This document shows positions 2,857 through 3,169 of a stretch of 34,734 nt of DNA, piece by piece. Source of the DNA: a virus (taxonomy: Duplodnaviria > Heunggongvirae > Uroviricota > Caudoviricetes). Every line of letters starts with the position of its first letter. The first letter of the stretch is position 1. The translations under genes were made by a program, and so were the position numbers. The notes below the pieces were generated by a model that did not search any database, was not told where the DNA came from, and saw only the letters and a list, made by a program, of their open reading frames with translations. The stretch lies in IMG/VR virus record IMGVR_UViG_2531839454_000020; one strand, 5' to 3'.

Positions 2857-3051
2857 TGCACTTGACCTAAGCGAGAAATGACTATCAAAATTTTTGTGTG
2901 AAAATGGCGGATAACGATTATCAACCTTTATAACCTATTATAGCACGGCGACCTTTTGATAATTCTTTTTAAATCATGCATTTACAGCGATTTTTGGTGA
3001 TTTTCCGGTTAAATAATATACAAGAATTTTCTATCAAAATTTTTGATGAAA

Positions 3052-3169
3052 AACCTACACTACAAACCTACGCTTTAAAGGGATTGGCCTACACTAGTCA
3101 GTAAACCTACACTATAACACCCTCAAACCTACACTATGAAACCTACACACCTACACTAACCCTACACTT
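3052..3169 (+). repeat. array of 7 to 8 same-orientation CCTACAC(TA) direct repeats, irregular spacing
   Basis: CCTACAC at 3054, 3089, 3106, 3127, 3142, 3150, 3161 plus variant CCTACGC at 3066; most preceded by AAA. Confidence 0.7.

Follow-up and report, generated by a model that had tools for sequence, protein, structure and literature searches.

A dyad-symmetric repeat pair in the early control region of an Escherichia coli prophage family: candidate sites for an architectural protein

In an E. coli prophage, two near-identical AT-rich repeats lie within the early control region, between a predicted leftward promoter and an array of direct repeats. Their features are best accommodated if both are cis-acting, dyad-symmetric binding sites for an architectural protein that bracket a 127-bp A/T spacer, a reading given a probability of roughly 0.4. 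The repeat itself is real, conserved and non-random. An initial annotation of the same DNA had described the two copies as bendable palindromes typical of DNA-unwinding elements or factor-binding sites. Docking or bending sites for a DNA-architectural protein appear more likely than a DNA-unwinding element, and IHF is by sequence the leading candidate for the binding protein, with a protein of the H-NS or Fis type and the phage proteins p201 and p77 as alternatives.

Structure and Composition of the Repeat Pair

Copy 1 reads TATCAAAATTTTTGTGTGAAAA (2883-2904) and copy 2 reads TATCAAAATTTTTGATGAAAAA (3032-3053). The exact block common to both is the 15-mer CTATCAAAATTTTTG, found at 2882-2896 and 3031-3045 with a start-to-start distance of 149 bp, in agreement with the two near-identical copies about 150 bp apart reported in the initial annotation. 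When the flanks are included, the repeat forms a discrete motif of ~31 nt without assigned strand, represented by AGAAATGACTATCAAAATTTTTGTGTGAAAA at 2874-2904 (with the core TATCAAAATTTTTG) and by AGAATTTTCTATCAAAATTTTTGATGAAAAA at 3023-3053; aligned with a single gap, the two are identical in 26 of 31 columns. The tails of the 22-mers match at 18 of 22 positions without gaps, and aligning them takes a 1-nt indel, copy 1 having an extra base (G-TG-TGAAAA). Consequently, the earlier formula TATCAAAATTTTTG(T/A)TGAAAA, which counts 21 letters and not 22, describes copy 2 correctly but fits copy 1 only after this indel. The AT-rich DNA between the two 22-mers measures 127 bp; with the ~31-nt motifs set apart, the spacer feature extends over 2905-3022, has no assigned strand, and contains periodic A/T tracts, an inverted half-site and near-IHF cores.

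The segment CAAAA-T-TTTTG, present in both copies, is a perfect palindrome about one central base, which bears out the near-palindromic core described previously. In copy 2 the palindrome extends to a perfect 15-mer, ATCAAAAtTTTTGAT (3033-3047), and continues as an imperfect 13+13 dyad to 3027-3053. The dyad of copy 1 is imperfect, with a degenerate right arm (TTTTGTG) that appears among relatives as TTTGT, TTTGC or TTTAT. As had also been recognized, copy 2 abuts the CCTACAC array, whose first unit starts at 3054, directly after 3053.

A search of the window, by which we mean the whole analysed stretch of 34,734 nucleotides, with a 21-mer pattern allowing up to three mismatches returned two sites, namely the copies themselves, against an expectation of 0.01, and two or more sites were obtained in none of 100 shuffles. 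Such a search had been put forward as a means of refuting the motif; its frequency is not random, and the refutation fails. Among E. coli genomes, a 36-mer around copy 2 is confined to this prophage module (31 of 5,426 genomes). Beyond the repeat, the spacer has no further similarity to its own flanks, and a diverged tandem duplication as the origin of the repeat was therefore rejected.

The interval 2883-3053 is 72.5% AT, and the 170-bp stretch starting at 2883 falls at the 99.4th percentile of the window for low nearest-neighbour duplex stability, with the 40-mer at 3009 ranking fifth for low stability. A/T-tract periodicity over the 170 bp from 2881 ranks first among ~6,900 stretches of the window, with peaks at 11.25-11.5 and 12.25-12.5 bp and zero power at 10.5 bp; given this lack of power at 10.5 bp, regular A/T-tract spacing is supported, and simple planar intrinsic curvature is not demonstrated.

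Each copy matches 12 of 13 positions of the IHF core consensus WATCAANNNNTTR as TATCAAAATTTTT, with T replacing R, and neither carries an exact consensus. Cores with one mismatch number four in 2870-3060 against 0.43 expected, and 78 such cores in the whole window make them common; those in the spacer lie at 2949 (minus strand) and 2972 (plus strand). The spacer also holds a third, inverted half-site, TTTTGAT (2954-2960), and four of the 23 ATCAAAA half-sites of the window fall in 2884-3047. The 9-mer TATCAAAAT occurs seven times in the window against 1.14 expected, including at 6627 in the p201-TerL intergenic region, where it adjoins an exact IHF consensus (6635-6647).

Two other types of element were considered for this stretch and rejected. 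The folding energy of 2870-3060 relative to shuffled sequences gave z scores of -0.08 (plus strand) and +0.21 (minus strand), and no Rfam match covered the copies; with z near zero on both strands, a structured RNA or terminator at the copies was discarded. A small ORF at 2976-3104 was discarded because it is broken by a 1-nt deletion in locus L044 and by the changing array types.

Prophage Setting of the Control Region

The window comprises most of a ~35-kb E. coli prophage with 41% GC and matches contig AQCY01000078 of GCA_000354335.2. Related prophages were detected in 58 of 5,426 complete E. coli genomes (~1%), always in the chromosome. The integration site is hicB in strain DEC5A, and in strain 23CRST001 a relative with a different integrase occupies ycdX; this ycdX version carries extra cargo consisting of a GIY-YIG nuclease and a DEAD-box helicase. 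The phage genes encode a lambda-type gpA large terminase (TerL), a portal protein, a capsid-protease fusion, tail proteins, an endolysin and a large serine integrase, the last of which is located at 31588-33282; the observations on integration also draw on loci L026/L027 and L105. The control region is compact, and no recognisable repressor or replication genes were found in it. Searches returned no close isolated phage (the best TerL match being 43%), no nucleotide match to the window in phage and plasmid collections, and no match to the downstream gene in the species-representative genomes scanned, and literature searches on this prophage and its motifs retrieved only unrelated primers. The prophage family is previously uncharacterised.

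A non-coding control region of 1.27 kb (2488-3745) contains both copies. It is bordered on the left by a leftward operon comprising p59, p331 and p80, the first gene of which encodes the small HTH-like protein p59 (2306-2485, minus strand); on the right, the rightward genes p149, p110 and Rha lead onward to TerL. A strong sigma-70 promoter, P_left, is predicted at 2828-2856 on the minus strand (TTGACA, 17 bp, TATACT; 11/12), with its -35 hexamer lying within the palindrome TTGACAgtTGTCAA. Relative to P_left, the copies are centred at ~-69 (copy 1) and ~-219 (copy 2), and the array starts at ~-233.

The Nu1-like small terminase gene (PHROG 57, E 1e-11) was located just left of the window start, near attL, at 17276-17830 of locus L026. 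The small and large terminase genes are ~7 kb apart (TerL, 6684-8591), with the whole early control region between them.

In addition to P_left, a weak candidate rightward promoter can be written at 2862-2891 on the plus strand (TTGACC, 18 bp, CAAAAT; 9/12), with its -10 hexamer within copy 1. If this promoter were active, copy 1 would supply its -10, or both copies might act as A/T tracts resembling UP elements, since copy 1 matches 13 and copy 2 matches 12 of the 14 specified positions of the UP consensus NNAAAWWTWTTTTNNNAAANNN. However, the candidate rightward -35 is not conserved (ATGATC or ATGACC in relatives), no -35 precedes copy 2, and no core promoter is suitably spaced downstream of either copy. 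With centres at ~-69 and ~-219 from P_left, the copies also lie outside the UP position of that promoter. The candidate rightward promoter is accordingly doubtful, the UP element was rejected because no core promoter occurs at the right distance, and a role of the copies as promoter elements appears very improbable overall.

Distribution of the Pair among Related Prophages

Comparison of related prophages indicates that the dyad pair belongs to one version of the promoter-leader module, designated type A, and not to the array. The type A module was identified in 31 of 5,426 E. coli genomes, once per genome, with the P_left hexamers conserved throughout. All type A sequences examined carry the pair, in combination with all four array types; the spacing of the copies is 149 bp in all but two sequences, in which it is 148 bp, and the pair keeps a fixed position with respect to promoter and array. 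Both integration sites and no fewer than four p59 alleles are represented among type A prophages. Conserved module and variable array meet directly behind the TTTGA of copy 2.

In the alternative module, type B, two tandem leftward sigma-70 promoters (12/12) occupy the position of P_left and directly abut the array, and neither the dyad pair nor a cluster of IHF-like cores is present. A single sequence aligned to copy 1 (TTTTCAAA ... TATGAAAAT) flanks CCTACAC units in type B. In one locus, L080, a B-like module occurs together with the CCTACAC array and a 94% identical p331; this locus has neither the pair nor the cluster of cores, and its array abuts the leftward promoter.

Within aligned distinct type A sequences, the arms of copy 2 (TCAAA-N3-TTTGA) are invariant and its centre varies among ATT, ATA and AAT, the pattern expected of a dyad site with an uncontacted centre. 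Nucleotide diversity across 21 distinct type A sequences is 0.071 for copy 1 and 0.097 for copy 2, compared with 0.122 for the spacer and 0.128 for the module, and the core of copy 1 (2883-2897) forms a local diversity minimum (pi 0.031). Since the whole type A module is ~87% conserved, the copies stand out only modestly, and the fixed arms of copy 2 are the more informative sign of function.

These data bear directly on whether the repeat has any function. Because type B manages without the pair, the pair may be dispensable or even functionless. A functionless repeat might be the scar left when the 127-bp spacer came to lie between promoter and array, or a short, conserved stretch used for recombination between modules. 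Several features are consistent with such an origin: the conserved module gives way to four unrelated arrays exactly after copy 2, the single copy-1-aligned sequence of type B flanks CCTACAC units, stray units of other types in the arrays attest to frequent recombination, and the copies are conserved only modestly above background. However, among 31 genomes and viral contigs, no variant lacks one copy together with the spacer and none has a third copy; substitutions spare the arms of the copy 2 dyad and hit its centre; and the spacer is neither repeated or mobile in E. coli nor a diverged duplicate of its flanks. A functionless repeat is considered unlikely.

The distribution also bears on the proposal of a DNA-unwinding element. 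According to this proposal, the stretch would form the melting segment of a phage origin with an IHF site, in which the CCTACAC units serve as iterons, p331 serves as the initiator, and the AT-rich segment melts first, in a layout resembling the R6K gamma origin. The DNA is indeed 72.5% AT, of low stability, and adjoins eight direct repeats; co-variation of the array with the p331 N-terminal domain parallels that of iterons with initiators, and the ~35-kb phage encodes no other recognisable replication protein. Yet L080, with the same array and a 94% identical p331, and all type B sequences do without the segment, so the pair is not obligatory for the array-p331 system, which weighs against an unwinding element. 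The segment travels with the promoter-leader module and occurs with four different arrays, its boundary lying at the end of copy 2. Moreover, p331 has no detectable Rep similarity and its structural models are unusable, and the array, being positioned between divergent transcription units, could equally be an operator array. The unwinding part of the initial annotation is thus decidedly improbable, despite its correct description of an AT-rich, unstable segment next to an iteron-like array. Its factor-binding, bendable part fits the data better, in view of the invariant dyad of copy 2, the clustered near-IHF cores, the phased A/T tracts and the placement at ~-69 and ~-219.

Candidate Binding Proteins

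None of the variable phage features compared with the pair tracks it, including p59, p331, the small terminase (TerS), p77, Rha, p149, the TerL allele and the integrase/attachment site. The partner would then be a host protein or a phage protein conserved in all relatives, unless the pair has no partner. For an architectural pair, the binder would be a host nucleoid-associated protein, most probably IHF-like and, failing that, of the H-NS or Fis type.

The sites were also considered as conventional phage operators. Dyad symmetry is present, perfect over 15 bp in copy 2 and imperfect in copy 1, but co-variation with a phage DNA-binding protein is not, since the pair occurs with every allele and with both integrase/attachment-site types. 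In particular, the occurrence of at least four p59 alleles on type A backgrounds implies that p59 is not the specific partner of the dyads. Three proteins encoded on the minus strand, p59, p77 (5729-5962) and p201 (5991-6596), have in common a ~55-residue HTH-like domain with an N-terminal (G/A)RP-x-(K/R)F motif, and p201 contains two copies of it. A profile of this domain gave no significant match in PDB or Pfam, including Hin, resolvase and any solved HTH (best E 0.08).

A conserved regulator such as p201 or p77 might nevertheless bind the copies through the half-site TATCAAAA, with cooperativity by looping. Copy 2 is dyad-symmetric, TATCAAAAT recurs at 6627 in a candidate p201-TerL promoter region that is conserved in all types, and both proteins are universally present, p201 being 88-96% identical across all relatives. 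The N-terminal (G/A)RP is reminiscent of the minor-groove arm of Hin-type HTH domains, and the Hin half-site TTATCAAAAACC has the TATCAAAA core in common with the copies. Against this, type B possesses the same p201 and p77, yet has no such sites in its control region; the domain profile lacks a significant match to Hin, resolvase, a solved HTH (best E 0.08) or a Pfam family; and the half-site spacing differs (17 bp vs 26 bp in hix). Operators for p201 or p77 are consequently quite unlikely.

The comparison with hix can be extended further. The hix site recognized by Hin comprises 26 bp with two 12-bp half-sites. Like the half-sites of the Hin family, the copies contain the TATCAAAA core with an A-tract toward the dyad centre; unlike hix, the dyad spans 17 bp instead of 26 bp, and the phage has no Hin-type invertase. 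On account of the 17-bp dyad and the absence of a Hin or resolvase profile match for p59, p77 and p201, a Hin/hix link was rejected. FNR, CRP and Fis sites were rejected by eye against their consensus sequences, the half-site order or the end bases being wrong.

Similarity to lambda cohesive-end sequences was noted in the spacer, where CGGCGACCT (2946-2954) agrees with the 12-base lambda cohesive end at 9 bases and ATTTTCCGGTT (3000-3010) matches lambda bases 37-47. As CGGCGACCT varies freely in relatives, its likeness to lambda is probably due to chance. A lambda-type cosN/cosB site was rejected because this 9-mer lacks conservation and because TerS and TerL alleles vary independently of both the pair and the array.

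The p201-TerL intergenic region (6597-6683), in which TATCAAAAT recurs, is nearly identical in all relatives and contains the least stable DNA of the window. The exact IHF consensus that follows TATCAAAAT, TATCAACAATTTA (6635-6647), is retained by the variants found in relatives. This region is a candidate late-promoter or packaging-site region.

The CCTACAC Array, p331 and a Possible Hinge

Directly after copy 2, the array occupies 3054-3167 on the plus strand and consists of eight iteron-like direct units of CCTACAC(TA), located at 3054, 3068 (CCTACGC), 3088, 3106, 3128, 3142, 3150 and 3161. Among relatives drawn from IMG/VR and E. coli genomes, the array behaves as a swappable module with at least four unrelated sequence types, namely CCTACAC, TTTTGCCCCTGAA, (T)CCCCG(C/T)G and ATCCCCAAGATTCCAC; arrays may carry stray units of other types at their edges. 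Array type and the protein encoded at the p331 position go together in all informative loci: CCTACAC is paired with p331, TTGCCCC with a 313-aa protein, and CCCCG with 333-aa proteins. This co-variation was seen in the window and in loci L006, L012, L111 and L080. By comparison, the array does not track the Nu1-like small terminase, p59, p77, Rha, p149, the TerL allele or the integrase.

The p331 protein (1194-2189, minus strand) is an orphan whose N-terminal domain is variable and is followed by a coiled coil and an acidic tail. Between p331 and the 313-aa protein, only the C-terminal halves are common (coiled coil, acidic stretch and conserved end; 31% identity, E 3e-5), and the N-terminal ~130 residues differ. 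Since the array type co-varies with these N-terminal residues and the C-terminal half is common, the N-terminal domain probably reads the array, and p331 would be the cognate binder of the CCTACAC array through this domain. Candidate roles for the pair of p331 and array are an initiator with its iterons, an immunity repressor with its operators, or an autoregulator. Close homologues of p331 are all unnamed proteins of E. coli or Shigella, and an exhaustive HMMER search with the N-terminal domain yielded six hits. Searches of p331 against NCBIfam, Pfam and PHROGs identified no family and no Rep similarity. AlphaFold predictions had pLDDT values of 43.5 and 50.2, making the models unusable, and a fold search gave nothing meaningful.

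With the array so placed, the architectural reading of the copies suggests how they might act. Together with the spacer, they would constitute a hinge in the type A version of the early control region, separating the leftward early promoter from the direct-repeat array to which p331 presumably binds. Bending or looping at both sites by the host protein could allow the array-bound complex to reach the promoter over a distance of 200 bp. Type A, with its array 200 bp from the promoter, would require a hinge of this kind; type B and L080, in which the array touches the promoter, do not have it.

A broader proposition, which we regard as speculative and unlikely, is that the dyad pair and spacer make up a portable hinge cassette within a previously undescribed modular specificity system. 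If so, any pair of array and protein could control the early promoter, or fire an origin, from a distance of 200 bp with the aid of a host architectural protein. The system itself would comprise at least four array types, each read by a p331-like orphan that swaps its N-terminal domain and keeps its coiled-coil/acidic effector half.

Taken by itself, the repeat is an ordinary kind of element, and the surrounding locus is of greater interest for its arrays co-varying with an orphan N-terminal domain, its structured leader RNA, and the lack of recognisable repressor and replication genes. If the dyads are hinges for a host factor, they would illustrate how a single promoter module can be joined to many specificity modules. 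Should they be something else, the locus would still serve as a clean natural experiment, as the same array and protein exist both with and without the pair.

Likeness to Known Systems

Besides hix, three groups of known systems resemble parts of this arrangement. IHF sites are found near early promoters and control regions of phages, for example, the sites upstream of lambda pL, H' in lambda attP and I1 in lambda cosB. Like these, the copies consist of an AT-rich TATCAA and T-rich element positioned tens to hundreds of bp upstream of an early promoter, where they would presumably bend the DNA and bring distant complexes into contact. Unlike them, the copies miss the last consensus position (TTT for TTR, with TTG one base too far), and copy 2 is truly palindromic, in contrast to IHF sites.

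Iteron origins with an adjoining AT-rich, IHF-binding segment include the R6K gamma origin, pSC101 and P1 oriR. The order of elements is comparable, with an AT-rich meltable segment containing IHF-like cores followed by 7-10 direct repeats that co-vary with a neighbouring protein. However, the AT-rich segment of the prophage is unlinked to the array in relatives, and neither a Rep fold nor a Rep family could be detected for the cognate protein. The presumed binder is encoded in an operon whose promoter lies downstream of the array, and the array may therefore be regulatory.

Paired sites for H-NS or other nucleoid proteins separated by curved DNA occur upstream of promoters such as that of Shigella virF. 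The prophage likewise has two AT-rich sites, separated by ~150 bp and by phased A/T tracts, in horizontally acquired DNA of low GC content (41%), but its periodicity is 11.3-12.5 bp and not 10.5 bp.

Leader RNA and Further Observations

Downstream of P_left, the type A module includes a structured leftward leader RNA (2525-2821, minus strand). This ~300-nt leader has a minimum free energy of -78.8, compared with -57.8 +/- 4.4 for shuffled sequences (z = -4.8), and an alifold consensus of 19 sequences contains three compensatory pairs. An intrinsic terminator (2541-2525) closes the leader immediately ahead of p59. The leader of type B is different, but a terminator occupies the equivalent place. 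The leader may function as an attenuator or in another form of RNA-based control. An invariant sequence within it, GCACGAATTGCTAAAG (2609-2624), forms one arm of a long leader helix; a MarA-type box at this position was rejected, the conserved RNA helix arm being a better explanation. Another sequence, CTGTATATCTGATCAG (2588-2603), fits the CTG-N10-CAG frame of a LexA box and is located in the most conserved block of type A (pi ~0.03). As it also lies within the structured leader, either a LexA box or RNA structure could explain its conservation.

Between the minus-strand genes p331 and p59, a strong terminator-like hairpin with a T-run, GCCTCCTTTGCTGCAACAAGGGAGGCTTTTTATTTTT, is present on the plus strand (2238-2275), and weak Rfam hits to L10_leader and PyrG_leader arise from it.

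The right end of the non-coding region (3554-3637) is 76-85% identical to unannotated, repeated intergenic sequences of T4-like coliphages of the RB49/Krischvirus type. Further right, 43 nt upstream of p149, lies TATAAATA (3696-3703), the T4 late-promoter consensus. The phage record with the closest TerL (43%), DCP80 (PQ671644, loci L001/L002; 141 kb), has a similar head module at its left end and T4-type genes elsewhere, and is filed under Tevenvirinae; the record may represent a chimeric assembly or an unusual mosaic. Short GC hairpins with UUCG-, GAA- and GUA-type loops (GGCGTAGCC, GCGCGAAGCGC, CCCTTCGGG and CAACCTTCGGTTG) are distributed over 3301-3321, 3376-3396 and 3514-3545 of the control region, and phage DCP80 (L001) has similar GC hairpins in its left end.
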